64,000 nt of DNA from an uncultured Rickettsiales bacterium (lineage in GTDB: Bacteria > Myxococcota_A > UBA796 > UBA9615), in NCBI GenBank assembly GCA_964344575.1, contig CAYFOA010000009.1:8458-72457 (forward strand), written 5' to 3'. The position numbers and the translations under genes are program-made. Numbering within the stretch: position 1 is the stretch's first letter; the number at the start of each line of letters is the position of its first letter. The notes under the pieces were generated by a model. The model worked only from the letters and a program-made list of their open reading frames with translations. It was not told the DNA's origin and made no database searches. Of this stretch, positions 16,419-57,124 are shown piece after piece.

Positions 16419-16445
16419 CGCCGTCGCCTCGGTATCCTGGGACCG

Positions 16446-16745
16446 ATGCGGACGTTGACGACCGACATGACGCGCGACGATCTCCGTCCCTACTTCCTGT
16501 GGGACGAGGACGTCAGCGTCGCCGAGCTGCGGGCGATCCTGGCGGGTTCGCACGGAGGAGCCCGTCGGGAGCAGGTCCTCGGCAAGATGCTCCGCGAGGC
16601 CCGGGACACCGACGTGTGGCACTTCGTCACCCCCGAGGAGGTCGCCGCCGAGCTCCCTCGACTCGCCCGGAGACTGGGCCGACGCCGCGCGTTCTGGGAG
16701 TGGTTGATCGAGGGATGGCGGGCCGATGGACTCCTCGCGTCCTAG
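16446..16745 (+). CDS. Small protein overlapping the AbiEii-like gene; putative cognate antitoxin
   Basis: 99-aa ORF whose 3' end overlaps the downstream nucleotidyltransferase gene by 20 nt. I could not assign a family. Confidence 0.5.
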   Translation: MRTLTTDMTRDDLRPYFLWDEDVSVAELRAILAGSHGGARREQVLGKMLREARDTDVWHFVTPEEVAAELPRLARRLGRRRAFWEWLIEGWRADGLLAS

Positions 16746-18932: not shown

Positions 18933-19289
18933 GTGTCCAAGTCCCTGCTCCAACAACTCGACGAGGAGTTCGGCCTCGGCCTCAAGCCGGGTCAGGACGA
19001 GCGCCGCATCGCCCTGCGACGGGCCTGCGTCGCCCCGGCGATCCTCGTCCCCGTCGACGCCGCCGGGGCCCGCGACGAGGACGGCCGCCGCGACGGCATC
19101 GCCCTGGACGTCAGCGAGGGGGGCGTCCGCGTCGTCAGCAAGGCGCGGCTGGAGGCGCCGGCGCTGGAGATCCGGATCCCCCGCGCCGAGGCCGAGTCCA
19201 TCGTCCTCGTCGGCGACGTCGTGCGCTTCCGCGAGCTGGCGAGCGGCTACACGGAGTACGGGCTGAGGCTGCGGGCTACCGGAACCTGA
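18933..19289 (+). CDS. Standalone PilZ-domain protein (c-di-GMP receptor family)
   Basis: RRIALRR ... DVSEGGVRV, which fits the RxxxR / DxSxxG PilZ signature. The GTG at 18933 is the likely start rather than the ORF-track ATG at 18753, which lies inside thrC. Confidence 0.6.
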   Translation: MSKSLLQQLDEEFGLGLKPGQDERRIALRRACVAPAILVPVDAAGARDEDGRRDGIALDVSEGGVRVVSKARLEAPALEIRIPRAEAESIVLVGDVVRFRELASGYTEYGLRLRATGT

Positions 19290-19902
19290 GCATCTGCCAG
19301 GGCGACGGCCCCTCGCTGCCGCCCCGCTTGTCCCCCGCGATGTCCGCGTTCGGGCGCTGCTCGGAGATGCCGTCGTAGTAGTAGCTCGGGAGCTCGCCGC
19401 AGTTCGTCGCGCGGAACCGCTCCTCGACCTCGCCGTAGAAGATCGACCCCTGGATGCGGTCGTCCGTGAACGAGGTGATCTCCGACGACCCCTCGTTCGA
19501 CGGTACGGGCACCCCCTCCTCGTCGTACCCGTTGATGAACGACGTGCACAGCGCGTCGGCCCACTGGTAGCTGTTGTAGGCCTCGCAGTCGGGCGAGTAG
19601 CGGGACGGGTAGTCCCCCTCCCACTCGCGCTGGTCGCCGCGGATCAGGTAGGCGAGCAGCCACTCGTTGTCGTCGTCGTTGAAGCCGTAGCCGGTGCCGT
19701 TCTCGCACCCGAAGTCGTCCTCCCGGGGGAGGAACAGGTAGAGCACCCACGCGTTGCTGTACGGGTAGTACCGGTACGCCGCGACGGCCTCGCCGTAGCT
19801 GCCCCCGATGCTGTCGGCGTTCGGGTGGTTGTCGCGCACCGGGGGGCACCCCAGCAGCGACGCGACGAGGACGGCCCACAGCGCGAGTCGGACGGACTTC
19901 AT
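19276..19902 (-). CDS. Hypothetical lipoprotein (Y/W/D/E-rich, 4 Cys)
   Basis: Signal peptide with a LLGC lipobox and protein-like composition. It overlaps the PilZ gene convergently by 14 nt. Confidence 0.6.
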   Translation of the reverse strand: MKSVRLALWAVLVASLLGCPPVRDNHPNADSIGGSYGEAVAAYRYYPYSNAWVLYLFLPREDDFGCENGTGYGFNDDDNEWLLAYLIRGDQREWEGDYPSRYSPDCEAYNSYQWADALCTSFINGYDEEGVPVPSNEGSSEITSFTDDRIQGSIFYGEVEERFRATNCGELPSYYYDGISEQRPNADIAGDKRGGSEGPSPWQMLRFR

Positions 19903-19954
19903 GGGCGGAGCCTACCGCGAACCGGACCGGTCGCCTCGCGTAGGATCGTGCCCC

Positions 19955-22900: not shown

Positions 22901-23703
22901 TGGGCGAGCAGTGGTACGTCGCGCTGGGCCGCGCGTGGAGCGCGCTGGGCTACACGTGGCTGGGGGAGCTGGCGACGTCGCGGTCGATGATCGAGGCGGG
23001 GATCGCCGAGGCGGAGCGGCGCGGCGACGGCTGGTGCAAGGCGACGTACTGGCTGGGGGAGTCGACGATCGCGCTCCTCGCGGTCGAGGGGGGCGAGGCC
23101 CGCGTCCGCGCCCTGCTGCAGGACGCCCGCGGCACGCTCGGCCCCCAGGACGCCGGCTGGGTCCAGTCCGCGTACAACGTCCAGTCCCTCGCGCTGGTGG
23201 TCTCCGAGGTGCTGCTGGACCTCTGGGAGGACGACGCCCTCGGCGCCTGGCACCGGCTGTCCGGGGAGTGGGGGGCGGTGCGGCGGAGCGGCTACCTGCT
23301 GTGCCGGTTCATCCGCGAGTGGGCCCGGTTCCGGCTGGGCGGCGCGGCGGTCGCGGCGTCGGCGACGGGAGGGCCCAAGGCGGACCAGCAGCGGCGGGTC
23401 GCGGGCCGGCAGGCGAAGGTCCTCGCCAAGGACAAGGGCCGCATCGGCGAGCCGCTGAGCCACCTCCTCCGGGGGGCGCTGGCGGCGCAGGCGGGGGACG
23501 TGGAGCAGGCGCGGACGCACCTCGTCGCCGCGGAGGGCGGCTTCGATCGCCTCGGGCTGCGCGGCCACCTGGCGGCGACGCGGGCGCGGATGGTCGCGCT
23601 GGGGATGGACGATCGCCGGACGCCGGCCCAGCGCTGGTTCATCGCCGAGGGGGTGCGGGACCGCGAGCGGTTCTGCCGGGTGATGGCCCCCGGCTTCCCC
23701 TGA
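19955..23703 (+). pseudogene. Ser/Thr protein kinase + AAA/P-loop NTPase + TPR-like helical domain (STAND-like regulator), frameshifted in a G7 run
   Basis: Kinase subdomains: FQGTDRFDVLGTLGMGGMGVVYRALD...VALKT, then HADVKPSNVLV, DFGLA and APEQ. The frame switches from frame 2 to frame 1 inside the G run at 20224-20230, where one missing G restores ...ELVEGGADMLSW.... This is followed by the P-loop GRSGIGKSHLIRHF and helical repeats. Confidence 0.8.
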
Positions 23704-38774: not shown

Positions 38775-39692
38775 GTGCGCGCAGTCGTCACCGGGGCCGC
38801 CGGGTTCATCGGCTCCCACCTGTCCGAGGCGCTCGCGCGGGCGGGCCACGACGTGGTCGGCGTCGACGCCTTCACCGACTACTACGACCGGGCGCTCAAG
38901 GACCGGAACGCCGCCGCCGTGCGCGCCGCCGGCGCCGAGGTCCGGGAGCTCGACCTCGCCGCGGACGACCTCGCGGGCGTGGTCGCGGGCGCGGACGTGG
39001 TCTTCCACCTCGCGGGGCAGCCGGGGCTGAGCGCGTCGACCTCCCTGGCGACCTACGTCCGGAACAACATCACCGCGACGGGGCGGCTGATCGAGGCGGC
39101 CACGGCGGCGGTGGACGCCTCGCTGTTCGTGAACATCGCCACGTCCTCGGTGTACGGCGCGATGGCGGACGGCGACGAGACGACGGTCCCCCGCCCGACG
39201 TCCTTCTACGGCATCACCAAGCTGGCCGCCGAGCACCTCGTCATGGCGTCGCCGCTGCCCGCCTGCTCGCTCCGGATCTTCAGCGTGTACGGCCCCCGCG
39301 AGCGTCCCGAGAAGCTCTTCCCGGGGCTGATCGAGGCGATCGCCGCGGACCGGCCGTTCCCGCTCTTCGAGGGGGCCGAGGAGCACGAGCGGTCGTTCAC
39401 CTACGTGGGCGACATCGTGCACGGGTGCCTCGCTGCCCTCCAGCGGCGGGAGGACGTCCTCGGGCAGGTGATCAACCTCGGAACGGAGGCTTCCTACCGG
39501 ACGATGGAGGGGGTCGCGATCGTGCAGGAGCTGATGGGGAAGGAGGCCCGCTTCGAGCGCCTCCCGCGGCGCCCCGGGGACCAGCTGAGGACGTCCGCGT
39601 CCATCGATCGCGCGCGCCGCCTGCTCGGGTACGAGCCGACCACGACGCTGCGCGAGGGACTCGCCGCCGAGGTGGCCTGGTTCGCCGGCTGA
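38775..39692 (+). CDS. NAD-dependent epimerase/dehydratase family protein (UDP-sugar epimerase-like)
   Basis: Rossmann motif VTGAAGFIGSHL lies immediately after the GTG at 38775. The SDR-extended YxxxK region is present. Confidence 0.82.
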   Translation: MRAVVTGAAGFIGSHLSEALARAGHDVVGVDAFTDYYDRALKDRNAAAVRAAGAEVRELDLAADDLAGVVAGADVVFHLAGQPGLSASTSLATYVRNNITATGRLIEAATAAVDASLFVNIATSSVYGAMADGDETTVPRPTSFYGITKLAAEHLVMASPLPACSLRIFSVYGPRERPEKLFPGLIEAIAADRPFPLFEGAEEHERSFTYVGDIVHGCLAALQRREDVLGQVINLGTEASYRTMEGVAIVQELMGKEARFERLPRRPGDQLRTSASIDRARRLLGYEPTTTLREGLAAEVAWFAG

Positions 39693-39754
39693 GCGATCCC
39701 CAGGGCGCGATCTTGCCCGCCCGGTGTGAGCGCCCCTTGCTCTGGGGTGGGCGC

Positions 39755-40702
39755 ATGATGAAGAAGACCCTCCCCCTCGCCGCCCTCCTGTCCCTCGCCG
39801 CGTGCGACACGCAGCCCGCCGAGTTCGACACCGAGCTGATGACGACGTACGGCCACGTGGTCGACGACCGCGCCTGGGCCGTCGGCTCGACGATGTACCT
39901 CGAGGCGACGGTGACCGGCCCCCGCCGCAACATCGTGGTGGACTTCGAGTCCGCCGACGGCGAGGTCATCGCGGGCACGTCCGACAGCTACGCCGGCGAG
40001 GGCTACATCCCCGGCCCCTGGGACCTGATGTACGGCCCCGGCCTGAGCAGCTCCTACGCGTACGCGGACGCGGCGGTGAACGAGGCGGGCGGCTTCGAGA
40101 TCGTCGTCAACACGGCCCGCGGCAAGGAGATCAGCCGCACCCCCCTGATGGCCGAGGAGCCCGCCGGCTACGCGCTCGGCGTGGTGCTCGACGACTGCCC
40201 CGAGTTCCCCGACCTCGTCTTCCGCGAGGACCCGACGATGCTCGAGGGGAGCGAGGTCATGCTCGCCCCGGCGCCCATCGGCGAGGGCGGCGACCAGCTC
40301 GTCGGCCACTTCGACTTCGGGACGTCCGGCGACGGCGTCGAGGTCGACGCGTGGGGCGGCGACTACGCCTACGTGACGGTCGGCGGGGACGACTTCACGC
40401 TGAGCTTCGAGATCGACGGCGCGTCCCACGACTTCGACATCAAGACGGCCGGGGTCGAGGAGATCGTCGAGATCGAGATCGCCGACGTCCCCGAGAAGCA
40501 CGGCATGGCGAACCAGTCGCTGCTCTGCGTGATCGGCCGGACCGCGGACGGCGCGCCGGTCCACGGCATCGCCCCGGAGTGGTCGACGGGCTGGACGGCG
40601 CCGACCGTCCACGCGGACAACTTCAGCACGGTCGACGCCTGCTTCGGTGAGCTGTGCGCGAGCTGGGAAGGCCCCGACGCGGGCGCCGACCCCGTCCAGT
40701 AG
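39755..40702 (+). CDS. Hypothetical lipoprotein
   Basis: MMKKTLPLAALLSLAAC lipobox. The 110 codons upstream in the track ORF are an Arg/Gly-rich artefact overlapping the epimerase gene. Confidence 0.62.
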   Translation: MMKKTLPLAALLSLAACDTQPAEFDTELMTTYGHVVDDRAWAVGSTMYLEATVTGPRRNIVVDFESADGEVIAGTSDSYAGEGYIPGPWDLMYGPGLSSSYAYADAAVNEAGGFEIVVNTARGKEISRTPLMAEEPAGYALGVVLDDCPEFPDLVFREDPTMLEGSEVMLAPAPIGEGGDQLVGHFDFGTSGDGVEVDAWGGDYAYVTVGGDDFTLSFEIDGASHDFDIKTAGVEEIVEIEIADVPEKHGMANQSLLCVIGRTADGAPVHGIAPEWSTGWTAPTVHADNFSTVDACFGELCASWEGPDAGADPVQ

Positions 40703-40708
40703 CCGCCG

Positions 40709-42043
40709 TCAGGCGCCGCGCGCGGCCTTCCGCTCGGCCTCGGTGCGGACGAAGTCCTTGTACGTCCGCAGCGGCTGGTCGCTCTCCACCTCGACCATCG
40801 TGATGCAATCGGGGACGGGGCAGACCATCTGGCAGAGGTTGCAGCCGACGCACTCCTCCTCGTCCACGAAGGGGATGCGGGACTCCCAGTCCACCTCCAT
40901 GTCCTCCCGGACCTTCAGCTTCGCCGCCGTCACGGGGTCGAGCCGCTCGGCCCCCTCGCGGAGGTGGATGCACTGGTGGCTGCCGTCGTAGCAGGCGATG
41001 TAGCACTTCTGGCAGCCGATGCACGACGCGTCGTCGATCTTCGCCACGACCTTGTAGTTGAGGTCGAGGTCGCCCCACTCGGTGAACGACGGGACGGCCT
41101 TGCCGATCATGTCGTCCATCGTCGCGAAGCCCTTGTCCTCCATGTAGGTCTCGAGCCCCTCGATCATGTCCTCGACGATGCGGTAGCCGTGGTGCATGAC
41201 GGCGGTGCAGACCTGGACGGTGGAGGCGCCGAGGAGGAAGAACTCGACCGCGTCGCGCCACGTGCCGACGCCGCCGATCCCGGAGATCGGGAGGTTGAAC
41301 TGCGGGCTCCGGGCCAGCGCGCCGACCATGTGCAGGGCGATGGGGCGGACGGCGGGGCCGCAGTAGCCGCCGTTGGTCGACCGCTCGCCGACCCGGGGGT
41401 TGGGGACGAAGCGGTCGATGTCGACGCTGATGAGCGACTTGATCGTGTTGATCAGGGAGACGCCGTCGGCGCCGCCGGCCTGCGAGGCGAGCCCGTGGGG
41501 GACGATGTCGCCGACGTTCGGCGTCAGCTTCACGAGGACGGGGATGGAGCTGTACTCCTTCGCCCACGACGTGATCTCCTGGTTGACCGCGGGCTCCTGC
41601 CCGACGGCGCTCCCCATGCCGCGCTCGCACATGCCGTGGGGGCAGCCGAAGTTGAGCTCCAGGCCGTCGGCGCCGGCGTCGATCGACCGCTTGATGATGT
41701 CCTTCCACTCCTCGCGGGTCTCGACCATCAGCGACGCGATGACCGCGTGCTTCGGGTAGCGCTTCTTGACCTCGTAGATCTCCGCGAAGTTCACCTCCAG
41801 CGGGCGGTCGGTGATCAGCTCGATGTTGTTGAGCCCGATGATCCGCCGGTCGCCGTAGTGGATGGCGCCGTAGCGCGACGACACGTTCACGATCGGGTCG
41901 CCCAGCGTCTTCCACACCGCGCCGCCCCAGCCGGCGTCGAACGCGCGCATCACCTGGTCGCCCGAGTTGGACGGCGGCGCGCTCGCGAGCCAGAACGGGT
42001 TCGGGGACTGGATGCCGCCGGTGTTGGCAGTGAGATCGACCAT
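40709..42043 (-). CDS. preA: Dihydropyrimidine dehydrogenase subunit PreA (DHOD-like TIM barrel + 2x[4Fe-4S] ferredoxin)
   Basis: MVDLTANTGGIQSPNPFWLASAPPSNSG...NFGCPHGMCERGMGSAVGQ... and C-terminal CIGCQKCYIACY / CVGCNLCQMVCP. GGAGG lies 8 nt upstream of the ATG at 42043. The upstream 840 codons of the track ORF are an artefact. Confidence 0.88.
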   Translation of the reverse strand: MVDLTANTGGIQSPNPFWLASAPPSNSGDQVMRAFDAGWGGAVWKTLGDPIVNVSSRYGAIHYGDRRIIGLNNIELITDRPLEVNFAEIYEVKKRYPKHAVIASLMVETREEWKDIIKRSIDAGADGLELNFGCPHGMCERGMGSAVGQEPAVNQEITSWAKEYSSIPVLVKLTPNVGDIVPHGLASQAGGADGVSLINTIKSLISVDIDRFVPNPRVGERSTNGGYCGPAVRPIALHMVGALARSPQFNLPISGIGGVGTWRDAVEFFLLGASTVQVCTAVMHHGYRIVEDMIEGLETYMEDKGFATMDDMIGKAVPSFTEWGDLDLNYKVVAKIDDASCIGCQKCYIACYDGSHQCIHLREGAERLDPVTAAKLKVREDMEVDWESRIPFVDEEECVGCNLCQMVCPVPDCITMVEVESDQPLRTYKDFVRTEAERKAARGA

Positions 42044-42088
42044 CGAGGAGCCTCCGGACGGCGAGTGTACCCGGGTAGCATCCGCCAG

Positions 42089-43243
42089 ATGCGCGCCGAC
42101 GACACCTTCCCCGAAGGCACCGCCCTCGGCCCCGACCTGGTGCTGGAGCGCCGGGCCGCCGGCCTCGACGACCTCGAGCTTTGGGAGGCCACCCTGACGG
42201 AGGCCACCGGGGCGCAGTCGGCCGTCACCGCGAAGCTCCCGGGGCGGGGCGCGCGGGCCGACGCCGAGGCGCGGCTGCGGCGCGAGGCGGGGCTCTGGGT
42301 GATGCTCAACCACCCCCGCCTGCTGACCCCCGTGGGGCTCCAGCAGGCCGAGGGGCTCGCCGTCCTCGTCGGGGAGGGGCTGGACGGGCCGTCGCTGGCG
42401 AGCGTGAAGGCCGAGTCGGACAAGCGGCGGCAGCGCTGGCCCGCGAACGCGGTGCTCGAGCTGGTGTTCCAAGCGGCCGAGGGGCTGGTCCACGTCGAGC
42501 GCGCCGCGAGCCTGTCGGGCACGTGGCTCAACGCGGCGCACCGGGCGCTGACGCATGAGCGGATCCGGTTCAACGCGCAGGGCCGGGTGGTGCTCGCCGA
42601 CTTCGCGCAGTGCTGGACGGAGCTCGATCTCGGACCGGCCATGGCGCCCCCGTCGGACCCCGTGGAGGCGCGCTACCGGGCGCCCGAGCTGTGGGACGAG
42701 CCCGAGGGGGGACGGTGGGCGGACCTCTGGTCGCTCGGCGTCATCGCCTGGGAGCTGCTGACGAACCGCCCCTTCTCGAACGGCCTGACCCCCGAGGCGG
42801 TGCGCGCCGACGTCGAGTCCCGCACCGCGGAGACCGACGTCCGCAACGTGGCGTCCGGGCTCGACCTCACCGTGGCGCTCCTCGACCAGCTCCTGTCCCG
42901 CGACCCCGTCCGCCGCCACCTCGACCCGTCGCAGCTGATGCGCCTCTGCGCGGCGGCCCTGGAGCAGACCCCGCCGGGCGCGGGTCTGGACCGCGTGGTC
43001 GGCCTCCTCGGGAAGTTCACCCCCGCGACGTCCGCCCCGGTCCTGAAGGTCGACCCCGGCAGCACCGAGGGGGCCGCCCCGGCCCGCCCCGTGACCGAGA
43101 ACTGGTCGGTGATGACGACGGGCGGCGACGCCCCCAGCGGCAAGACGGAGGACTGGTCGGCGATCCCGCTGACGGGCGTCACCGGCGCCGACGGCCGCCC
43201 GCAGACGACGGACTGGTCGGCGATCCCGATGGACGACGACTAG
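42089..43243 (+). CDS. Pseudokinase: degenerate Ser/Thr-kinase-like domain with C-terminal DWSAIP repeats
   Basis: Kinase-like LNHPRLL, HRALTHERIRFN (HRD to HRA), DFA (for DFG), RYRAPELW and DLWSLGVIAWELLTNRPF. No Gly-rich loop. Three copies of xDWSAIPx at the C-terminus. It is antisense to the preT-MFS-preA direction. Confidence 0.62.
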   Translation: MRADDTFPEGTALGPDLVLERRAAGLDDLELWEATLTEATGAQSAVTAKLPGRGARADAEARLRREAGLWVMLNHPRLLTPVGLQQAEGLAVLVGEGLDGPSLASVKAESDKRRQRWPANAVLELVFQAAEGLVHVERAASLSGTWLNAAHRALTHERIRFNAQGRVVLADFAQCWTELDLGPAMAPPSDPVEARYRAPELWDEPEGGRWADLWSLGVIAWELLTNRPFSNGLTPEAVRADVESRTAETDVRNVASGLDLTVALLDQLLSRDPVRRHLDPSQLMRLCAAALEQTPPGAGLDRVVGLLGKFTPATSAPVLKVDPGSTEGAAPARPVTENWSVMTTGGDAPSGKTEDWSAIPLTGVTGADGRPQTTDWSAIPMDDD

Positions 43244-44472
43244 GCCGGAGCCTCGCCCTCCGCGGCCGGCCGGAGCGCGAACGCGAAGCCGATCGCGATG
43301 CTCGTCAGCCCCGTCGCGACGAGGAAGGGGAGGTCGAGGCGGACCTCGAGCAGCATGCCCGCGAACGTCGGGCCGATGACGCGGCCGAAGGCGACCATCG
43401 AGTTGGCGAGGCCGAACGCGCGGCCCTGCTCGTGGGCGGGGGCGGCGCGGCTGGCGAGGGCGAACGTCGCCGGGATCGACAGCCCCGCCCCCGTCGCGTG
43501 GAGCACGATCGGGACCAGCAGCCCCGGCCAGCTCACCGCCCACAGCGTCGTCAGGGGCGACAGCACCAGCGCGACGACGACGATCGCGAGGCCGGCCCGG
43601 ACGAGGCGCCGCTCGTTCCACCGGGGCGCCAGGATCGGCACCGCGAAGCCCTGGATCGCGATCACCACCAACCCGTACGTCACCATCAGGCTCGCGGTGT
43701 ACGTGGCCGCCTGGAGGTGCGCCTCGGGGCCCGTCCCCACGTACGCCCGTTCGAGGAACAGGGGGATGGCCTGCTGGAAGATCGCCGTCGAGGTGGCCGC
43801 GAACCCGAAGATCCCCAGGCAGGCCGTGAACGAGGGCCACGCGCGGGCGTCGTGGAGCGTCTGCCGGGACAGGATGGTCGCCAGCGGGCCCGTCACCTCG
43901 GTCCTCGGCGACGTCTCCGGGTAGAGGCGCCAGGCCAGCCCCGCGGCGGCGAGGCTGAACCCCGCCGCCAGCAGCAGCGGCTCGCGCAGGCCGGTCGCGC
44001 CGAGCGTCCCCCCGATCATCGCCCCGACGAGGAACCCCAGCCCCATCGCGCCGCCGACGTGCCCCATCGCCGCCGCCCGCTCCGATGGCGCCGACCGGTC
44101 CGCGAGGGAAGCCGCCGCGATGGCGAGCGTCGCGTTGCCGAACCCCGCGATCATCCGCCCCGCGAACGCCATCGGGAGGGTCTGGGCGAGCCCGAGGACG
44201 ACCAGCCCCATCACGGACGTGCACAGCGACCACAGGATCAGCGGACGTCGCCCGTGCCGGTCGCTCAGCCGGCCCCACACGGGGACCATCAGGAGCTGCA
44301 TCGCCGCGTAGCTCGCCTCGAGCCAGGTCACGCGCGTCGCGTCGGCGCCGAGCGACTCGGCGAAGAACGGCTGGATGGGGATGAGGATCCCCGCGCCGAC
44401 GAGGTCGAGGAAGACGACGGCGAGGACGATCGTCCGCTGCCGCTTGGTCAGCGTGGGGGTCGGCTCGGTCAA
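43240..44472 (-). CDS. MFS transporter (DHA1/tetracycline-efflux-like, 12 TM)
   Basis: 410 aa with MFS motifs (GRLSDRHGRRP). The start overlaps the preT stop (ATGA). Confidence 0.85.
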   Translation of the reverse strand: MTEPTPTLTKRQRTIVLAVVFLDLVGAGILIPIQPFFAESLGADATRVTWLEASYAAMQLLMVPVWGRLSDRHGRRPLILWSLCTSVMGLVVLGLAQTLPMAFAGRMIAGFGNATLAIAAASLADRSAPSERAAAMGHVGGAMGLGFLVGAMIGGTLGATGLREPLLLAAGFSLAAAGLAWRLYPETSPRTEVTGPLATILSRQTLHDARAWPSFTACLGIFGFAATSTAIFQQAIPLFLERAYVGTGPEAHLQAATYTASLMVTYGLVVIAIQGFAVPILAPRWNERRLVRAGLAIVVVALVLSPLTTLWAVSWPGLLVPIVLHATGAGLSIPATFALASRAAPAHEQGRAFGLANSMVAFGRVIGPTFAGMLLEVRLDLPFLVATGLTSIAIGFAFALRPAAEGEAPA

Positions 44473-45833
44473 CCGCCGAGGGCGACGTGGATCGCGTGCG
44501 CGGCCCGCTTCCCTTCGGCGGCGGCGTTGACGACCTCCTTGCCGCCGTTGGCGACGTCACCGCCGGCGAACACCTTCGGGTTGGCGGTGCAGCCGTCCTC
44601 GTCGACGACCAGCCGGCCCCACTCCAGCTCGACGCCGGGGATCCCCTGCAGGAGCGATGTCAGCTTGCCCTGGCCCGCCGCCACGACGACCAGCTCGGCG
44701 GGGACGACCCAGCTGTGGTCGCCCTTGCGGACCAGCTTGCGCCCCTTGGGGTCGGACGGGTCGATCCCCATCGCGTGGCACTCCACGCCCGTGACCTTGC
44801 CGTCCTCGCCGACGTAGGCGACCGGCTGGCTGTGCCACGACGCCATCGCACCCGCCCGCTTGGCGTAGTCCCACTCGTGCTCGTAGCCCGTCATCGAGCC
44901 CTCGTCGCGGCGGTAGATCATCGTGACGCAGGGGATCCCGAGGACGAGCAGCTCGCGGACGACGTCCAGCGCCGTGTTGCCCCCGCCGACCACCGCGGCG
45001 TGGATGACGCCGTCGGTGGCGGGGTCGCCGCCGGTCTTCCACCGCTCGATGATCTCGACCCCGCCGAACACGCCGTCGAGGTCCTCGCCGGGCACGCCGA
45101 GGCTGCTGTCGGTCCCCAGCCCGACGCCCACGAACACGGCGTCGTGGCCGCCGATGAGGTCGTCCCAGGAGACGTCCTTGCCGACCTCGACGCCCGTCCT
45201 CACCTCGACCCCCATCGAGTCGACGATCCACGCCACTTCGGCCAGCGAAGCGTCCGCGGCCATCTTGTAGGGGGCGACGCCGGTGGTGTTGAGCCCGCCG
45301 GGCAGCGGCCGCTTCTCGTACAGGACCGTCGCGTGGCCGAGCTTCCGGAGCTCGTGCGCGCACGCCAGCGACGCCGGGCCCGCGCCGACCAAGGCCACGG
45401 TCTTGCCCGAGTCCGGCCCCGGGGCGTACAGTTCCCAGCCCTTCAGGAACGCGGTGTCGGTGGAGTAGCGCTGGAGCCGCCCGATCTGGATCGGGGGGAT
45501 GTCCTCGTGGTTGTAGACGCACTTCCCGACGCAGAGCACCTCCACGGGGCAGACGCGCGCGCAGGACATGCCGAGGATGTTCGAGTCGAAGATGGTCCGC
45601 GCCGAGCCCTTGACGTTGTCCGTCGCGATCTTCCGGATGAACTCGGGGATGTCGATGGACGTGGGGCACGCCTCGACGCAGGGGGCGTCGTAGCAGTACA
45701 GGCAACGCGACGCCTCCGCGATGGCCTGGGCGCGCGTGTACAGCGGCTTGCCGTCGTCGAACTTCGTCTCCGCCCGGTCCGCCGGCAGGTCCGGGTGGGG
45801 AGCTGTGAATCCAGCCAACGTCGTCGCCGCCAT
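44469..45833 (-). CDS. preT: Dihydropyrimidine dehydrogenase subunit PreT (GltD-like FAD/NAD(P) oxidoreductase with N-terminal Fe-S)
   Basis: CLYCYDAPCVEACPTSIDIPEFI, then GAGPASLACAHEL dinucleotide folds. GAGGAGG precedes the ATG. Confidence 0.88.
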   Translation of the reverse strand: MAATTLAGFTAPHPDLPADRAETKFDDGKPLYTRAQAIAEASRCLYCYDAPCVEACPTSIDIPEFIRKIATDNVKGSARTIFDSNILGMSCARVCPVEVLCVGKCVYNHEDIPPIQIGRLQRYSTDTAFLKGWELYAPGPDSGKTVALVGAGPASLACAHELRKLGHATVLYEKRPLPGGLNTTGVAPYKMAADASLAEVAWIVDSMGVEVRTGVEVGKDVSWDDLIGGHDAVFVGVGLGTDSSLGVPGEDLDGVFGGVEIIERWKTGGDPATDGVIHAAVVGGGNTALDVVRELLVLGIPCVTMIYRRDEGSMTGYEHEWDYAKRAGAMASWHSQPVAYVGEDGKVTGVECHAMGIDPSDPKGRKLVRKGDHSWVVPAELVVVAAGQGKLTSLLQGIPGVELEWGRLVVDEDGCTANPKVFAGGDVANGGKEVVNAAAEGKRAAHAIHVALGG

Positions 45834-45863
45834 GTCGCCTCCTCGCGTCCGCGAACGACGAGT

Positions 45864-46593
45864 CTAACCGGGGATGACCCAGGGCTCCCACCCGCGGGCG
45901 TAGGCGAGCGCGAAGGATCCCAGGAAGACGGCGTACAGCGCGGGCACGACGAGGAGCCAGCGGCGGTCCCAGCGGAGCTCCTCTTCGGGGACGTCGCGCA
46001 GGTCCAGGGGGCCGATGATCAGCGCGTAGAGGACCCCCACGAGGACCGCCGCGGCGACGACGTCGGCGAGGTAGTGCTGCTTCACGAACATGGTCGAGGC
46101 GCCCACCAGCGCGACGTTGATCAGCCCCAGGATCGCGACCGGACGATCCGCCTTCCAGCACGCCGCCGCCGCCAGCGCCGCCGCCGCGACGTGCAGGGAA
46201 GGGAAGCAGTTCATGGGCTCGTCGGCCCAGTACATGAAGTGCATCCCCCAGTTCGTCAGCGTGTCGGGCGGGGGCAGCGGGTCGGCCCGGAGCGTGTAGC
46301 GGACGGGGTAGACGATGAACGTCGTCAGCGCGATGACCTCGAGGACGAGCGCGGCCACCGCCATGCGCCGGAAGAGCCCGTCGTGCTTGATGACGAGGAC
46401 GGGCACGTAGCAGGTCACGAAGAGCAGCGCGTAGATGTAGAGCCACTCCGGGCGCAGCGGCGTGGCGACGTCCACGGGCAGCGTCAGCTCGTGCCCGGGA
46501 CGGGACGCTGTCCAGCGATTGACGGGCCAGTAGAGCGAGTACACGGCGCTCAGCCCGACCACGAGGAGCAGCCGCTCGAGAGCCCGGGGCATG
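45864..46593 (-). CDS. PAP2-family membrane phosphatase
   Basis: Motifs PSLHVAAAALAAA and FVKQHYLADVVAAAVLG (PSGH / SRx5Hx3D-like) with multiple TM segments. The ATG at 46593 (MPRALERLL) is preferred over the track start at 46721. Confidence 0.65.
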
Positions 46594-46759
46594 GGTCCAG
46601 AGTACGTCTTTTCGTGGTCAAGCCCGGCCGGGCGGGGCCGATGAGACGGTCGTTCGCATCCACACGAAACGGCACCCCCGTACGAAAGGCGGGCTCGCAA
46701 AGCCACTGGCCTACGGCGCACGACGCTACGGCTCGAAGGGCTACCGAACTGGAGAGCAC

Positions 46760-47758
46760 ATGCTTGCCACCCCGACGCGCCTCGGCGCGCTCGCTGCCCT
46801 CACCCTCATCCCCGCCATCGCGCTCGCCGGCTCCTCGGAGGTCGACTTCGTCGCCGTCGTGGACGTGCTCGACCTCGACAACCAGCTCGTGGAGGACGCG
46901 GGCCTCCTGGACTACGACGGCCCCGTGGTCGTCGCCCACACCGCCCCCAACGAGGACGGCGTCCTCGACTACTGGCTCCGCTTCGACCACGTCGCCGAGG
47001 CGGGCGCGCCGCTGGCGGGGGTCGCCGAGCTGTCGATCCTCGACGAGCGCTACGACGAGATGCCCGCGATCCTCACCGACCGCCTCGACGCGGTCGCCAT
47101 CGTCGACTCCCTCGCCGGCCAGCTCGCCGCCGAGGACGTCCGCGCGATCATCGATCCGATGTACGTCGACGAGCGCGCCCTCGAGGAGCTGAACGCCTGG
47201 GACGCCGACTCGCTCGTCGCCGTGGGCAAGGACTTCGAGCACGCGGTGCGGTCGTCCTCGGGCCTCGCCTTCGCGCCGCCGAACCGGACCACCGCGGCCT
47301 CGCTGGAGGCGTCCGTGGCCCCCTTCTACGCGGACGACTACCGCGGCCTGCTGTGCGAGGGCGCGATCCTCGACACCTGCGCCATCGCCACGCGCTTCGC
47401 GGGCGGCCTCTGGATCGACTGGGTGGTCGGCCCCGCAGGCGGCGACGGCAGCGGCTCCAACGCCGACGCCGGCGACGACGTCGAGACCGAGGTCGAGGAG
47501 ACCGAGGCGGACGACGCCGACGAGGAGGCCGAGGCGGACACGGCCACCGGCTCGGCGCCGACCGCGGACGAGACCGACGAGGCCAAGGGCGGCGACGACA
47601 CGGCCGTCGGCAGCACCGAGGTCGACGCCCCCGAGGCGCCCGAGGAGGACCACGACACGGACGTCCACCTCGACACGCACGTCCCCTCGGACACGCACGT
47701 CGACGAGGAGACCGAGGTCGACGCCCACTGGGCCCCGCCCCCGGCCCCCGCGCACTAG
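46760..47758 (+). CDS. Secreted acidic hypothetical protein
   Basis: Signal peptide (ALTLIPAIALAGS). The C-terminal third is Asp/Glu/Thr-rich low complexity. Confidence 0.55.
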   Translation: MLATPTRLGALAALTLIPAIALAGSSEVDFVAVVDVLDLDNQLVEDAGLLDYDGPVVVAHTAPNEDGVLDYWLRFDHVAEAGAPLAGVAELSILDERYDEMPAILTDRLDAVAIVDSLAGQLAAEDVRAIIDPMYVDERALEELNAWDADSLVAVGKDFEHAVRSSSGLAFAPPNRTTAASLEASVAPFYADDYRGLLCEGAILDTCAIATRFAGGLWIDWVVGPAGGDGSGSNADAGDDVETEVEETEADDADEEAEADTATGSAPTADETDEAKGGDDTAVGSTEVDAPEAPEEDHDTDVHLDTHVPSDTHVDEETEVDAHWAPPPAPAH

Positions 47759-47821
47759 GAGTCCCGCACCGGGACCCGGCACGGCTCCGCGTCGCCACGG
47801 CGCGGAGTTCGTGCTTGGGGT

Positions 47822-47851
47822 AGCCTCCGAACCCCCTGAGCGGAGGCTTTT
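47822..47851 (+). terminator. Stem-loop (8-bp perfect stem AGCCTCCG/CGGAGGCT, 11-nt loop) followed by TTTT; it overlaps the aldehyde dehydrogenase ribosome-binding site
   Basis: Read directly: ggggtagcctccgaaccccctgagcggaggcttttcATG. A second inverted repeat, CTCCGCG...CGCGGAG, sits at about 47788-47806. Confidence 0.4.
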
Positions 47852-47852
47852 C

Positions 47853-49337
47853 ATGGGCGATCGTCAGTTCCTCAACTACATCGACGGCGAGTGGGTGGCG
47901 GGCTCCGGCACGGACCCCATCGCGGACGTCAACCCGGCCGACACGCGCGAGATCGTCGGCTACGCGACCGACTCCGAGGCGGCGGACGTGGACGCGGCGG
48001 TGGCCGCGGCGAGCGCCGCGTTCGCGGCGTGGCGGGCGACCCCGGCGCCGAAGCGGGGGAAGATCGTCCAGGCCGCGGGCCGGCTGTACGAGCAGCGGGC
48101 GGCCGAGATCGGAGAGGTCCTCACGCGCGAGGAGGGGAAGATCCTCGCGGAGGCGAAGGGCGAGGTGCAGAAGGGGGCCAACCTCGTCGACTTCCTCTCC
48201 GGCGAGGCGCGCCGCCTGAACGGCGAGACGGTCCCGTCGGAGATCCCCAACACGTTCGCGTACACGGTCCGCTGCCCGCTCGGGGTGGTGGGGCTGATCA
48301 CGCCGTGGAACTTCCCCATGGCGATCCCCGCGTGGAAGATCGCGCCGGCGCTGGTGGCGGGGAACACGGTCGTCATCAAGGGGGCCGAGCAGACGCCGTG
48401 GACCACCGAGCTGGTGGTCCAGGCGTTCATCGACGCGGGCGTCCCGCGGGGGGTCCTGAACATGGTCCAGGGGCGCGGCCGGACGGCGGGGGCGGCGCTG
48501 GTCGATCACCCCGACGTGGCCGCGATCTCGTTCACGGGCTCGACGGAGATCGGGCGGCACATCTGGGCGCGGGGGGCGTCGCTGGGCAAGCCGGTGCAGT
48601 GCGAGCTGGGGGGGAAGAACCCGATCATCGTGCTCGCGGACGGCGACCTCGACATGGCGGTGGCGGCGACGGCGAAGGGCGCGTTCGGCTCGACCGGTCA
48701 GCGCTGCACGGCGACGTCTCGGGCGATCGTGGACCGCCGGATCCACGACGAGTTCGTGGAGCGGGTCGCGGCGGAGGCGAAGAAGGTGATCCCGGGCAAC
48801 GGGCTCGACCCGCGCACCACGATGGGGCCGTCGGTCGACAAGGAGCAGTTCGGGAAGGTCCACGAGTACCTCGACATCGGCGCCGCCGAGGGCGTCGAGG
48901 TCATCTGCGGCGGCCGCCGCGCGAGCGACGGCGCGCTGGAGTACGGGCTCTTCACGGAGCCGACGGTCTTCGACGGCGTCACCCGCGACATGCGCGTGGC
49001 CCGCGAGGAGATCTTCGGGCCCGTCCTGTCGGTCATCGAGGTGGACGGGATCGAGGAGGGGCTGGAGGTCGCCAACGACGTCGAGTTCGGGCTGACGTCC
49101 AGCGTCTACACGAACGACGTCAACAAGGTCTTCCAGTACATCGACCACATCGAGACGGGGATGCTCCACGTCAACTCGCCGACCATCGGCGGCGAGGCGC
49201 AGCTGCCGTTCGGCGGCATGAAGAAGACGGGCGTCGGGCCGCGCGAGATGGGGAAGACCGCGATCGAGTTCTTCACCGAGTGGAAGACGGTCTACATCGA
49301 CTACAGCGGCGGGTTCCGCGGCGGGAACCTGTACTAG
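47853..49337 (+). CDS. NAD(P)-dependent aldehyde dehydrogenase
   Basis: The ATG at 47853 follows the GGAGG. ALDH motifs ELGGKNPIIV and GQRCTA (catalytic Cys). Confidence 0.9.
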   Translation: MGDRQFLNYIDGEWVAGSGTDPIADVNPADTREIVGYATDSEAADVDAAVAAASAAFAAWRATPAPKRGKIVQAAGRLYEQRAAEIGEVLTREEGKILAEAKGEVQKGANLVDFLSGEARRLNGETVPSEIPNTFAYTVRCPLGVVGLITPWNFPMAIPAWKIAPALVAGNTVVIKGAEQTPWTTELVVQAFIDAGVPRGVLNMVQGRGRTAGAALVDHPDVAAISFTGSTEIGRHIWARGASLGKPVQCELGGKNPIIVLADGDLDMAVAATAKGAFGSTGQRCTATSRAIVDRRIHDEFVERVAAEAKKVIPGNGLDPRTTMGPSVDKEQFGKVHEYLDIGAAEGVEVICGGRRASDGALEYGLFTEPTVFDGVTRDMRVAREEIFGPVLSVIEVDGIEEGLEVANDVEFGLTSSVYTNDVNKVFQYIDHIETGMLHVNSPTIGGEAQLPFGGMKKTGVGPREMGKTAIEFFTEWKTVYIDYSGGFRGGNLY

Positions 49338-55657: not shown

Positions 55658-57124
55658 ATGGGTTCCCATGCTGCAGCGGTGAAGATCGAGGGCGCCGACC
55701 CCGGTCTGTACAACGAAGATCTGGCCCCCACGGCCCCCGAGGGGCGCACCTGGAGGTGGACCTCCATCGCGGCCCTGTGGGTCGGAATGGTCGTCTGCGT
55801 GCCGACCTACATGCTCGCCGCGGGGATGATCTCCCAGGGCATGTCCTGGAAGCAGGCGGTCTTCACCGTCCTGGCCGGTCAGGTCATCGTCCTCGTCCCG
55901 ATGATGCTCGTCGGCCACGCCGGCACGAAGCACGGCATCCCCTTCCCGGTGCTCCTCCGGTCGTCGTTCGGGACCGCCGGCGCCAACGTCCCCGCCATCC
56001 TCCGCGGCCTCGTGGCGTGCGGCTGGTTCGGCATCCAGACGTGGGTCGGCGGCTTCGCGATCTACACCTTGCTGAACGCTCTGAGCGGGGACTGGTTCAA
56101 GGGCGAGGCGTTGCCGATCCTGGGCATCGACTTCTGGCAGTTCGTCTGTTTCCTCGGCTTCTGGGCGATCCACGTCTGGTTCATCGCCAAGGGGACCGAG
56201 TCGATCCGCTGGCTGGAGACGTACGCGGCGCCGTTCCTCATCGCAATGGGGCTGGCGCTGCTGTGGTGGGCCTACTCCAAGGCGGGCGGGTTCGGCGAGA
56301 TGCTCTCGACGCCGTCCTCGATCAAGGAGGGCGAGTTCGCGGGCGTCTTCTTCCCCAACCTGACCGCGATGGTCGGCTTCTGGGCGACGTTGGCCCTCAA
56401 CATTCCGGACTTCACCCGCTACTGCGGCACCCAGCGGGACCAGGTGCTCGGGCAGGCGCTCGGGCTGCCCCCGACGATGGCGCTCTTCGCGTTCATCGGC
56501 GTGGCCGTCGCGTCGGCGACGGTCGTCATCTTCGGCGAGGCCGTGTGGGACCCGGTGGAGCTGCTCGGGAAGATGGGCGGCAGCGCCGTGATCATCGCGC
56601 TCTTCGTGCTCGCGGTGGCGACCCTGACGACGAACCTGGCCGCGAACGTCGTCGCCCCTGCGAACGGGTTCAGCAACATCAACCCCGAGAAGATCAGCTT
56701 CAAGATGGGCGGCTACATCACGGCCGGCATCGGGATCATCATCTTCCCGTGGAAGCTCCTGGAGTCCACCCAGGGCTACATCTTCACGTGGCTGATCGGC
56801 TACTCGGCGCTCCTCGGCCCGATCGCCGGCATCCTCATCGTCGACTACTTCTTCATCCGCAAGACGGACCTGAACATCACGGACCTCTTCCGCAAGGACG
56901 GCGAGTACCGCTTCGCGAGCGGCTGGAACCCGATCGCCCTGGTCGCGCTGGTCCTCGCCGTGCTCCCCAACGTCCCCGGCTTCATCAACGCCGCCACCGG
57001 CGCGAACGCGGCCGAGGGGTTCACGCCCGGGCTCTTCGACCAGCTCTACACGTACGCCTGGTTCGTCGGCCTCGCGATCGCGGGGGTGATCTACGGGGTC
57101 GGCATGAAGGTGACCGGCAAGTAG
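55658..57124 (+). CDS. NCS1-family nucleobase:cation symporter (cytosine/uracil/allantoin/hydantoin permease family)
   Basis: 488 aa, 12 TM, N-terminal NCS1 consensus (WRWTSIAALWVG...GWFGIQTWVGG). Confidence 0.82.
   Translation: MGSHAAAVKIEGADPGLYNEDLAPTAPEGRTWRWTSIAALWVGMVVCVPTYMLAAGMISQGMSWKQAVFTVLAGQVIVLVPMMLVGHAGTKHGIPFPVLLRSSFGTAGANVPAILRGLVACGWFGIQTWVGGFAIYTLLNALSGDWFKGEALPILGIDFWQFVCFLGFWAIHVWFIAKGTESIRWLETYAAPFLIAMGLALLWWAYSKAGGFGEMLSTPSSIKEGEFAGVFFPNLTAMVGFWATLALNIPDFTRYCGTQRDQVLGQALGLPPTMALFAFIGVAVASATVVIFGEAVWDPVELLGKMGGSAVIIALFVLAVATLTTNLAANVVAPANGFSNINPEKISFKMGGYITAGIGIIIFPWKLLESTQGYIFTWLIGYSALLGPIAGILIVDYFFIRKTDLNITDLFRKDGEYRFASGWNPIALVALVLAVLPNVPGFINAATGANAAEGFTPGLFDQLYTYAWFVGLAIAGVIYGVGMKVTGK

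Follow-up and report, generated by a model that had tools for sequence, protein, structure and literature searches.

The genes for the two subunits of dihydropyrimidine dehydrogenase, preT and preA, lie 2,425 nt apart in the window, by which we mean the whole 64-kb stretch of DNA analyzed here, and the interval is filled by an MFS transporter gene and, on the opposite strand, a kinase-like gene. The likely explanation is that a vertically inherited preTA operon was split in one myxobacterial lineage by this 2.4-kb insertion of two unrelated convergent genes, and that their position is incidental. The arrangement is best read as an incidental rearrangement in a plastic genome, and looks like ordinary genome reshuffling rather than a new regulatory system. 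Published surveys operationally define the preTA operon as adjacent genes on the same strand (bioRxiv 10.1101/820084), so the present locus would escape such screens.

Gene layout and junctions

The four gene calls were checked by GC3 frame plots and by Pfam and NCBIfam scans, and all four genes were found to be real at the coordinates given in Table 1. A sequence-only reading of this DNA had described preT and preA as split by a transporter gene and an antisense gene, and its account of the layout was largely borne out. The transporter and kinase-like genes overlap at their stop codons in a CTAG (43240-43243), the divergent spacer ahead of preA was confirmed as 45 nt by direct reading, and the NCS1 permease gene, placed about 10 kb away, was located 9.8 kb from preT. 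The overlap between preT and the transporter gene, given as ATGA, is in fact TTGA, made up of a TTG start and a TGA stop. TTG 44472 is the sole start codon within the transporter's open frame, and the resulting N-terminus agrees with that of the homolog P0014 to within 1 aa.

The junctions linking the lipoprotein gene hyp335, preA, the kinase-like gene, the transporter gene and preT recur unchanged in L001 and L002, two separate metagenome assemblies from ENA; the arrangement is therefore real, and the gene order is no assembly artefact.

Table 1. Features of the split preT-preA locus and its surroundings (positions in the window)
Feature	Position	Strand or length	Basis
preT	44469-45833	-	Pfam Fer4_20 + Pyr_redox_2
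MFS_1 transporter gene	43240-44472	-	Pfam MFS_1
Kinase-like gene (pseudokinase)	42089-43243	+	Pfam Pkinase / PK_Tyr_Ser-Thr
preA	40709-42043	-	NCBIfam NF006183; Pfam DHO_dh + Fer4_21
TEDWS repeats, pseudokinase tail	43094-43228	+	direct repeat family D2
Divergent spacer preA/pseudokinase	42044-42088	45 nt	sequence read directly
hyp335 lipoprotein gene	39755-40702	+	signal peptide + lipobox
PAP2-family membrane phosphatase gene	45864-46592	-	Pfam PAP2_3
NCS1 nucleobase:cation symporter gene	55658-57124	+	NCBIfam TIGR00800

Integrity of preT and preA

PreA scored 646 bits against the NCBIfam PreA equivalog (cutoff 335), and Fer4_20 matched PreT at 124 bits. As judged from their domains, the preA product is the FMN- and pyrimidine-binding subunit and the preT product the FAD- and NAD(H)-binding subunit of an NAD-dependent dihydropyrimidine dehydrogenase, each with two [4Fe-4S] clusters. 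Nearly all near-invariant alignment columns are as in relatives (103/104 in PreT and 180/181 in PreA), as are the conserved cysteines (8/8 and 14/14, respectively), and every conserved cofactor residue is kept. Relative to L092, the closest relative found, preA had a dN/dS of 0.17, and the C-terminus of PreT one of 0.37. These comparisons show both predicted subunits to be intact and preA to be under purifying selection. The predicted two-subunit architecture is that of the Escherichia coli NAD-dependent enzyme encoded by preT-preA (yeiT-yeiA), with all cysteine ligands conserved, whereas the window genes are non-adjacent, with two foreign genes between them.

Gene order in relatives

Synteny was compared across the 80 best PreA loci among GTDB species representatives (63-72% identity), most of them labeled Myxococcota or Deltaproteobacteria. 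In 75 of the 77 informative loci, preT lies no more than 180 nt upstream of preA on the same strand, so the separation in the window is highly unusual. In L092, whose PreA is 88% identical, the preA ATG follows the preT stop after a mere 2 nt. This comparison of gene orders shows the reconstructed ancestral state to be preT-preA with a gap of few nucleotides. The window and L092 copies are mutual nearest neighbors, for PreA (88% identity versus 75% or less for other loci) as well as for the PreT C-terminus (63% versus 56% or less); since the L092 pair is unsplit, the preTA pair was inherited vertically and split later. A point against this reading is that the unsplit nearest relatives are still fairly distant, with neighboring proteins about 70% identical and a GC content of 66-67% versus 72%.

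Because preT and preA adjoin each other and are co-oriented in essentially all relatives, L092 included, a lineage-specific insertion of the transporter and kinase-like genes is well supported by gene order, in agreement with the insertion proposed from the sequence. Neither the four-gene arrangement nor an active kinase in that place was found in the preA locus of any relative. On the other side, the insert shows no trace of a mobile element, is not flanked by repeats and does not stand out in composition.

The transporter

With a Pfam MFS_1 score of 167 bits, the transporter is predicted to be a DHA1-type protein with twelve transmembrane segments. It shares this architecture with the DHA1-family efflux pumps of the Tet(A)/(B)/(C) class, and its best NCBIfam similarity is to tet_MFS_A_B_C_D; the score of 161 bits is far under the cutoff of 475, which rules out a tetracycline pump. 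The gene was present in none of the 80 preA loci of relatives. Homologs in other Myxococcota reach at most 60% identity (P0014; 42% for P0015) and occupy unrelated contexts.

The kinase-like protein

The kinase-like protein matches the Pfam Pkinase and PK_Tyr_Ser-Thr families at 40-45 bits, over the gathering scores. The public gene call (P0001, 392 aa) starts at GTG 42065, which is probably 8 aa too early; ATG 42089 is preferred because the N-termini of orthologs align there. A kinase-like domain (aa 1-310), modeled by AlphaFold2 with a pLDDT of about 95, is followed by a disordered tail (aa 315-384) whose repeat region falls below 50, and the protein contains no transmembrane or other sensor domain. 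The closest solved structures found by Foldseek were Mycobacterium tuberculosis PknA and PknB (target-normalized TM-score up to 0.84), at a sequence identity of about 20%. The beta3 lysine (Lys49), the alphaC glutamate (Glu66), the DFG aspartate and the APE motif align with those of PknA and PknB. In contrast to these active kinases, which have a Gly-rich loop, the HRD aspartate and the catalytic asparagine, the window protein has HRA in place of HRD, Arg in place of the catalytic-loop Asn and DFA in place of DFG, and lacks the Gly-rich loop, in keeping with the earlier description of it as catalytically dead. By sequence and structural model, it is a true Hanks-type pseudokinase.

Such pseudokinases occur frequently in myxobacteria, as in Myxococcus xanthus, where 11 of 99 STPKs are missing a catalytic residue (PMC6791715). 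The window protein likewise combines the eukaryotic-like kinase fold with lost catalytic residues in a kinase-rich myxobacterial genome, but it belongs to a very small separate family with fixed losses and a TEDWS tail. An exhaustive HMMER search of 1.84 billion cluster representatives yielded four relatives (39-49% identity); the matches after these were generic kinases, at no more than 30%. All four have lost the same HRD Asp, catalytic Asn, DFG Gly and Gly-rich loop. The tail repeat, T-E/T-D/N-W-S-x-x-x, occurs three times in the window protein (TENWSVMT, TEDWSAIP and TTDWSAIP) and in three to four C-terminal copies in all full-length members, including P0133, P0134 and P0135. No other gene in 1.47 Mb, read in six frames, contains the TEDWS motif, and the repeats are probably short linear docking motifs.

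The four relatives occupy three unrelated contexts, none close to preTA or an MFS gene: P0133 lies downstream of a DAO dehydrogenase and a redoxin gene, P0134 downstream of a PilZ-methyltransferase and a hybrid histidine kinase, and P0135 is convergent with a MopE gene. A comparison of contexts shows that, in other genomes, neither of the inserted genes is in conserved linkage with preTA or with its partner in the insert. In L089, the pseudokinase ortholog forms a CTAG convergent overlap with an unrelated gene, so the overlap reflects compact packing and no special device.

Flanking genes and pathway context

Within the insert-split locus, preA is now a lone gene, with the pseudokinase gene as its divergent neighbor and hyp335 as its convergent one. 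The hyp335 protein carries a signal peptide and a lipobox (MMKKTLPLAALLSLAAC) and matches no Pfam, NCBIfam or PADLOC family. In both L092 and L093, the epimerase gene directly follows preA (in L093 the order is preA, epimerase, LamG, with hyp335 missing); hyp335 is therefore read, from gene order, as a lineage-specific lipoprotein gene and a second insertion, on the other side of preA. A PAP2 gene, which is absent from all related preA loci, lies 30 nt upstream of preT in the same orientation and probably opens a PAP2-preT-MFS unit. Its start was re-set to ATG 46592, just ahead of the first transmembrane segment; a start at GTG 46721 was rejected, as it would overlap a riboswitch on the opposite strand. 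The lineage-specific genes of the locus include, besides the lipoprotein and PAP2 genes, a MopE/Kelch and a TPR gene.

The canonical Myxococcota cluster for reductive pyrimidine catabolism, reconstructed here from the 80 loci, consists of an NCS1 permease, dihydropyrimidinase, CN-hydrolase (beta-ureidopropionase), class-III aminotransferase, MMSDH-type aldehyde dehydrogenase, preT and preA. The window shares preT, preA and an NCS1 gene (381 bits; cutoff 353) that is 58-66% identical to NCS1 genes beside or near preT in relatives such as L003, L005, L023 and L048; it is probably their ortholog and the pyrimidine permease of the pathway. While NCS1 often directly adjoins preT in relatives, lineage-specific genes separate the two here. 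Moreover, dihydropyrimidinase and beta-ureidopropionase are absent from the 64-kb window, whereas they occur within 10 kb in about 30-40% of relatives. The aldehyde dehydrogenase nearby differs in type from the usual enzyme of these clusters, to which it is only about 34% identical; it comes closest to GucD/alpha-ketoglutaric semialdehyde dehydrogenase models, scoring under the cutoff with each.

Expression of the split genes

PreT and PreA would still assemble into a heterotetrameric enzyme, now from two transcription units. PreT would be produced from the PAP2-preT-MFS unit, in which the TTGA overlap may couple translation of the transporter to that of preT. The preA gene has its own ribosome-binding site, a GGAGG in the spacer, 7 nt ahead of its start codon (ATG 42043). 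It may be monocistronic, with a promoter at the 5' end of the pseudokinase gene, either within that gene or just next to it, or else be transcribed by read-through across that antisense gene. The pseudokinase, with its intact kinase fold, might act as a non-catalytic signaling or adaptor protein, possibly still binding nucleotide through Lys49, Glu66 and Asp171, with the TEDWS motifs of its disordered tail docking a partner; its placement beside preA would be incidental. Scanning 39500-48000 turned up neither a promoter of the sigma-70 consensus, for preA or any other gene, nor an intrinsic terminator, but the scan is uninformative at 72% GC, where shuffled sequences are expected to give about 0-1, and no structured RNA was found in the insert region. 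By eye, and under the scan threshold, a TAGCAT hexamer can be seen at 42076-42081; placed 7 nt ahead of the ATG of the pseudokinase gene, it would fit a leaderless transcript of that gene.

Origin of the split

Some DHA1-family MFS proteins, such as pumps of the NepI and PbuE types, export nucleobases or nucleosides. It is thus conceivable, although unlikely, that the two genes were recruited into pyrimidine catabolism, the transporter, co-translated with PreT, carrying a substrate or product of the pyrimidine or dihydropyrimidine type, and the pseudokinase controlling, as a sensor or scaffold, how much PreA there is or how it assembles. The TTGA overlap (implying co-transcription and translational coupling), the control region common to the pseudokinase gene and preA, and the nucleotide-binding residues kept by the pseudokinase all agree with such a role. 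Together with the CTAG overlap, the TTGA overlap and the short spacer also indicate that the insert is fully integrated locally, and a recruited module would look alike. Nonetheless, a functional link, including the regulatory or scaffolding role suggested by the sequence-only reading, finds no comparative support, because neither the pseudokinase orthologs nor the closest transporter homologs lie near preTA elsewhere. The pseudokinase family is older than the arrangement and had already lost its catalytic residues in other contexts, the window without dihydropyrimidinase or beta-ureidopropionase is no consolidated pathway island, and other unrelated lineage-specific genes also entered the locus. 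It is quite unlikely that the layout forms an interference switch, in which read-through from preT and the transporter gene over the 1.15-kb pseudokinase gene would set the PreT:PreA ratio, the pseudokinase gene and preA being transcribed against each other. The missing terminator, the overlapping stops, the 45 nt left for two divergent promoters and the TAGCAT hexamer would suit this scheme, which is otherwise drawn purely from layout, is not helped by scans with so little power at this GC content or by any structured RNA, and shares its CTAG overlap with L089.

Loss of enzyme function through uncoupling of the subunits appears very improbable. The missing pathway genes and the considerable divergence of the PreT C-terminal region could be taken as decay; against this, both genes are free of frameshifts and internal stops, the proteins keep every conserved cysteine ligand and 99% of near-invariant positions, preA remains under constraint behind a strong ribosome-binding site, and the other pathway genes may sit elsewhere in the genome, as in most relatives. 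A chimeric contig, or a spurious antisense frame, is scarcely credible even for a metagenome-assembled genome and for high-GC DNA, in which long spurious frames are numerous, given that both assemblies agree and that the kinase-like frame has the GC3 periodicity of a plus-strand gene, a Pfam kinase match, conserved orthologs and a confidently modeled fold. An incidental insertion into an inherited operon remains the preferred reading, and the overall pattern, with the lipoprotein gene gained and NCS1 displaced in the same lineage, fits general erosion of the locus by insertions better than the gain of a dedicated regulator. A second, independent preTA split occurs in L035, with an antisense sensor histidine kinase gene, and the two cases might conceivably represent a recurrent pattern of a split accompanied by an antisense signaling gene.

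Gene order and junctions

The preT and preA genes, which encode the two subunits of NAD-dependent dihydropyrimidine dehydrogenase, lie on the same strand of the window and are separated by an MFS transporter gene and an oppositely oriented gene for a kinase-like protein (Table). A preTA operon is recognized in the literature by adjacency on one strand (bioRxiv 10.1101/820084); the genes of the window share a strand but are 2,425 nt apart and therefore fall outside that definition. All four gene calls of the sequence-only reading match the coding frames of a codon-position GC plot; long spurious ORFs are abundant in the window because of its GC content of ~72%. The CTAG overlap between the stop codons of the MFS and kinase-like genes and the 45-nt spacer between the latter and preA are present as had been described. 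The overlap said to couple preT to the MFS gene is also there, but it reads TTGA, with a TTG start, rather than ATGA. Two separate metagenome assemblies at ENA share these junctions, so the arrangement is not a misassembly. Databases start the kinase-like gene at GTG 42065, which explains why the 384-aa protein has no exact match in them. The surrounding genes include MopE/Kelch, TPR and STAND-type kinase genes.

Table. Coordinates of features in the window and in related loci
Feature	Sequence	Position	Strand	Basis or description
preA	window	40709-42043	-	codon-position GC plot, NCBIfam, Pfam
kinase-like gene	window	42089-43243	+	codon-position GC plot, Pfam Pkinase
MFS transporter gene	window	43240-44472	-	codon-position GC plot, Pfam MFS_1
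preT	window	44469-45833	-	codon-position GC plot, Pfam Fer4_20 + Pyr_redox_2
lipoprotein gene	window	39755-40702	+	lipobox
c-di-GMP-I riboswitch aptamer	window	46661-46748	+	RF01051
secreted protein gene	window	46760-47758		signal peptide + acidic tail
ALDH gene	window	47811-49337	+
dnaN, recF, gyrB, gyrA	window	213-10840	+
FabH-like/ATPase frame	window	4897-7020	+	ACP_syn_III and ArsA/ParA-type matches
small ORF, possible antitoxin	window	16419-16745		overlaps AbiEii gene
AbiEii-type toxin gene	window	16708-17376	+	within 16419-17376
STAND-type Ser/Thr kinase gene	window	19267-23703	+	Pkinase + AAA_16
independent preT/preA split	L035	6632-9137		JBCCWC010000068.1, Myxococcota MAG
pseudokinase relative	L087	10001-11227
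pseudokinase relative	L089	6391-7671
pseudokinase relative	L090	6033-7277

Synteny of preT and preA in relatives

The window proteins were mapped onto the best 80 PreA loci (63-72% identity) among GTDB species representatives; the genomes behind the closest of these loci are mostly labelled Myxococcota or Deltaproteobacteria, which, together with the MopE/Kelch, TPR and STAND-type kinase neighbours, marks the source of the window as an uncultured myxobacterium. The expectation that preT and preA are normally adjacent was borne out, with preT at most 180 nt upstream on the same strand in 75 of the 77 loci that hold both genes, and most of these gaps measure 4-30 nt. One of the 77 has a gap of 351 nt. 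The split in the window is thus truly rare. The same four-gene order in relatives, with an active kinase, had been named as evidence against an insertion; none of the 80 loci has it, and none carries an MFS or kinase-like homolog beside preTA.

Two closer relatives, L092 and L093, were drawn from the 90%-identity cluster of PreA. At L092 (PreA 88% identical to that of the window), 2 nt separate the preT stop codon from the preA ATG and an epimerase gene directly follows preA, while L093 (PreA 87% identity) has the order preA, epimerase gene, LamG gene. The window has the order of L093 plus an extra lipoprotein gene between preA and the epimerase gene. Moreover, PreT and PreA of the window each have their mutual nearest neighbour at L092, which indicates that the pair was inherited vertically and was split later in the lineage of the window. 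PreT is only 61-63% identical to its counterpart at L092, against 88% for PreA, as might be expected had preT been replaced by a xenolog. This replacement is rejected because PreT is itself a mutual nearest neighbour and because its C-terminus is variable (mean 49% identity to other loci). These loci show the insertion of the MFS and kinase-like genes to be lineage-specific.

L035, which also lacks adjacency, represents an independent split: its gap of 2.6 kb holds an antisense sensor histidine kinase gene and a redoxin-like gene, unrelated to the insert of the window. Upstream of preT at that locus, in divergent orientation, is a gene for a CN-hydrolase (beta-ureidopropionase-like). The lipoprotein gene of the window (MMKKTLPLAALLSLAAC) is also lineage-specific; it is absent from L092 and L093, none of the 80 related loci holds a homolog, and Pfam, NCBIfam and PADLOC give no family match.

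Integrity of the two enzyme subunits

Conserved columns, cysteines, dN/dS and the ribosome-binding site give no sign of decay in preT or preA. PreA scores 646.4 bits against the NCBIfam equivalog NF006183 (cutoff 335) over residues 1-434 of 444, and consists of a DHO_dh domain (FMN/pyrimidine) and a C-terminal Fer4_21 domain (2x[4Fe-4S]). It has cysteine at each of the 14 columns where the 80 relatives conserve one, including the active-site loop residue C134 in the motif NFGCPHG, and 180 of 181 near-invariant columns are matched. The ribosome-binding site GGAGG is kept 7 nt before the ATG of preA. PreT, which combines an N-terminal Fer4_20 domain (2x[4Fe-4S]; 124 bits) with a Pyr_redox_2 domain of the FAD/NAD(P) oxidoreductase kind, keeps 8/8 conserved cysteines and 103/104 near-invariant columns. 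It passes no NCBIfam model, the best being the gltA model TIGR01316 (294 bits vs a cutoff of 472). Its identity to the preA-adjacent PreT of the 75 loci (46-62%) and its pairing with L092 mark it as an ortholog of the operonic PreT rather than another GltD-like paralog. Relative to L092, preA has a dN/dS of 0.17, and the C-terminus of PreT, which is variable, has one of 0.37. These features show that both enzyme genes are intact.

A small family of pseudokinases

The kinase-like protein had been read as catalytically dead, and its residues agree. Where PknB, an active kinase of M. tuberculosis, reads HRDVKPANI, the window protein reads HRALTHERI, with Ala for the HRD Asp and Arg for the Mg-binding Asn; DFG has become DFA; and the Gly-rich loop (GxGxxG) is absent, its region reading AAGLDDLELWEA against the consensus LGxGGMAEV. 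The protein thus lacks the features that define an active Hanks-type Ser/Thr kinase. Across 64 more distant kinases aligned with it (alignment A2), conservation at the positions of the HRD Asp and the catalytic-loop Asn is at least 90%. The Thr at the position of the PknB catalytic-loop Lys is not a family-specific loss, since the nearest active kinases read HRD-V-S-P-x-N. The fold is nonetheless that of a protein kinase: the match to Pfam Pkinase reaches 39.9 bits (gathering score 31.7), AlphaFold2 pLDDT is ~95 for residues 1-310, Foldseek gives a probability of 1.00 to PknA/PknB as the closest solved structures, and the characteristic Lys, Glu and APE residues are retained.

A word-indexed search matched the protein only to itself, as would an orphan. 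This was ruled out by searching 1.84 billion cluster representatives exhaustively with HMMER: P0133, P0134, P0135 and the fragment P0136 are true relatives, with identities of 39-49%, and the matches after these four fall sharply to generic kinases at ≤30% identity. The relatives read HRA, HRG, PRV and SRC at the HRD position, with Arg at the Asn position in all, and DF(S)/DWS at the DFG position. Every family member lacks the HRD Asp, the catalytic Asn (replaced by Arg), the DFG Gly and the Gly-rich loop, while K49, E66 and A198-P199-E200 (beta3 Lys, alphaC Glu and APE) are invariant and the DFG Asp is kept by every member. At the end of each full-length member the motif P-x-T-E-D-W-S-x-[IV]-[PS] is repeated 3-4 times, and in the window protein AlphaFold2 predicts the repeat-bearing tail to be disordered; no other gene carries the TEDWS motif in six frames of the 1.47 Mb of fetched DNA. 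The family alignment, the confident kinase fold and the restricted motif identify the protein as a conserved pseudokinase: it lacks catalytic residues, its gene is not in decay, and the disordered TEDWS tail probably serves for docking. Pseudokinases are common in myxobacteria; M. xanthus has 11 among its 99 STPKs (PMC6791715).

Two other identities for this protein are rejected. It is not a recent duplicate of the 1478-aa STAND-type kinase encoded nearby, since the best local BLASTP alignment shows only 31% identity over 117 residues (E = 0.002). Nor is it an anti-phage defence kinase (PADLOC mad6, PD-T4-6, MkoA): the matches cover the kinase domain only and reach at most 56 bits, about the generic Pkinase score; for MAD6 the NCBIfam score is 55 bits vs a cutoff of 460, and the catalytic residues are absent. 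The genes neighbouring the pseudokinase have no PADLOC match.

P0133, P0134 and P0135 come only from one ENA series of samples (ERZ247946xx). P0133 and P0135 share a sample and may be paralogs in one genome or orthologs in co-occurring species.

Linkage of the inserted genes

The MFS transporter is a generic DHA1-type protein with general MFS_1/DHA1 membership only. Its best NCBIfam matches are Tet pumps at 161 bits, far below the cutoff of 475, so that a Tet(A)/(B)/(C)-type tetracycline efflux pump is rejected. Its closest homolog (60% identity, locus L083) and another at 42% (L085, L086) stand in contexts unrelated to that of the window. At L083 the MFS gene follows a gene for a 285-aa protein and an epimerase gene lies 10 kb away, which resembles synteny with the window; tblastn matched the MFS gene and an epimerase fragment only, and synteny is rejected.

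The pseudokinase relatives occupy equally varied neighbourhoods: P0133 follows a DAO-family dehydrogenase gene and an AhpC/redoxin gene (L087, L088), P0134 follows genes for a PilZ-methyltransferase and for a hybrid histidine kinase (L089), and P0135 is convergent with a MopE gene (L090, L091). In none of these three contexts is preT, preA or an MFS gene nearby. The 4-nt convergent CTAG overlap recurs at L089, as if the pseudokinase and MFS genes formed a conserved pair, but the convergent gene there is unrelated; the overlap is thus ordinary tight packing. An insertion, as the sequence-only reading proposed, is supported by the adjacency in 75 of 77 relatives and by the unsplit L092. Its further suggestion that the insert is regulatory or scaffolding has no such support, since neither inserted family is linked to preTA in other genomes; the comparative evidence argues against a functional tie.

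No mobile-element signature was found: neither direct nor inverted repeats flank the insert, the base composition shows no break, and mobile-element genes are absent. A duplicate of the preT 3' end in the 25 nt upstream of preA, as an insertion footprint, was likewise rejected (local alignments compared with those of random window segments: junction A vs junction B, p = 0.92; L092 vs junction B, p = 0.27).

The wider locus has come apart as well. The NCS1 permease gene, placed some 10 kb away by the earlier reading, indeed lies 9.8 kb from preT, with genes for PAP2, a secreted protein, ALDH, MopE/Kelch and TPR proteins in between; in many relatives it is next to preT (58-66% identity). Dihydropyrimidinase or CN-hydrolase genes lie within ~10 kb of preTA in ~30-40% of relatives, and none occurs in the window.

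Expression and interpretation

In the window, preT would be expressed from a PAP2-preT-MFS unit (PAP2-preT gap, 30 nt) driven from the divergent region 46593-46759, and the TTGA overlap would provide translational coupling of preT to the MFS gene. PreA would now be translated from a monocistronic message; its gene, which converges with the lipoprotein gene on one side and diverges from the pseudokinase gene on the other, would be transcribed either from a promoter overlapping the first pseudokinase codons or by read-through across the pseudokinase gene. Promoter and terminator consensus scans found nothing and are uninformative at 72% GC.

On the best-supported reading, a known operon was rearranged incidentally, and in this lineage only, within a myxobacterial genome that is plastic. 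The insert could possibly have been recruited into pyrimidine catabolism, or could possibly regulate preA by antisense transcription, but our comparisons yielded no positive evidence for either. A more far-reaching proposal is that the TEDWS-repeat pseudokinases constitute an undescribed bacterial adaptor family whose tails recruit a partner via the Trp motif, and that one of them, captured beside preA, sets PreT:PreA stoichiometry directly or by antisense transcription. We regard this as highly improbable; if true, a signalling pseudokinase would be wired to a catabolic flavoenzyme.

The locus shows that both subunits can persist intact after operon breakage. A small practical consequence is that split loci would escape adjacency-based preTA screens such as those used to study how microbes inactivate 5-fluorouracil. 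The case has no bearing on a long-standing open question and gives no indication of a new mechanism. The mildly new item is the small TEDWS-repeat family, a minor new entry among bacterial pseudokinases that might repay a protein-interaction study.

Other features of the window

A full-length c-di-GMP-I riboswitch aptamer (RF01051, 44.9 bits, gathering score 35; all 87 model positions matched, 1-87) sits in the divergent region beside the PAP2-preT-MFS unit. It ends 12 nt before the ATG of the uncharacterised secreted protein gene, which is followed by the ALDH gene. The aptamer overlaps the GTG 46721 start called for PAP2, and this overlap favours ATG 46592 as the true start. The ALDH is not of the MMSDH type that usually accompanies preTA in Myxococcota (only ~34% identity); it shares 56-61% identity with ALDHs directly flanking preTA at two related loci, L050 and L082, and a second ALDH type may thus be recurrently linked to the pathway.

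Farther away, dnaN, recF, gyrB and gyrA open the window, and the contig therefore probably begins beside the chromosomal replication origin. The AbiEii-type nucleotidyltransferase belongs to type IV toxin-antitoxin systems, and the small overlapping ORF upstream could be its antitoxin. One stop-to-stop frame matches both a FabH-like protein and an ArsA/ParA-type ATPase and may represent two genes or an unusual fusion.
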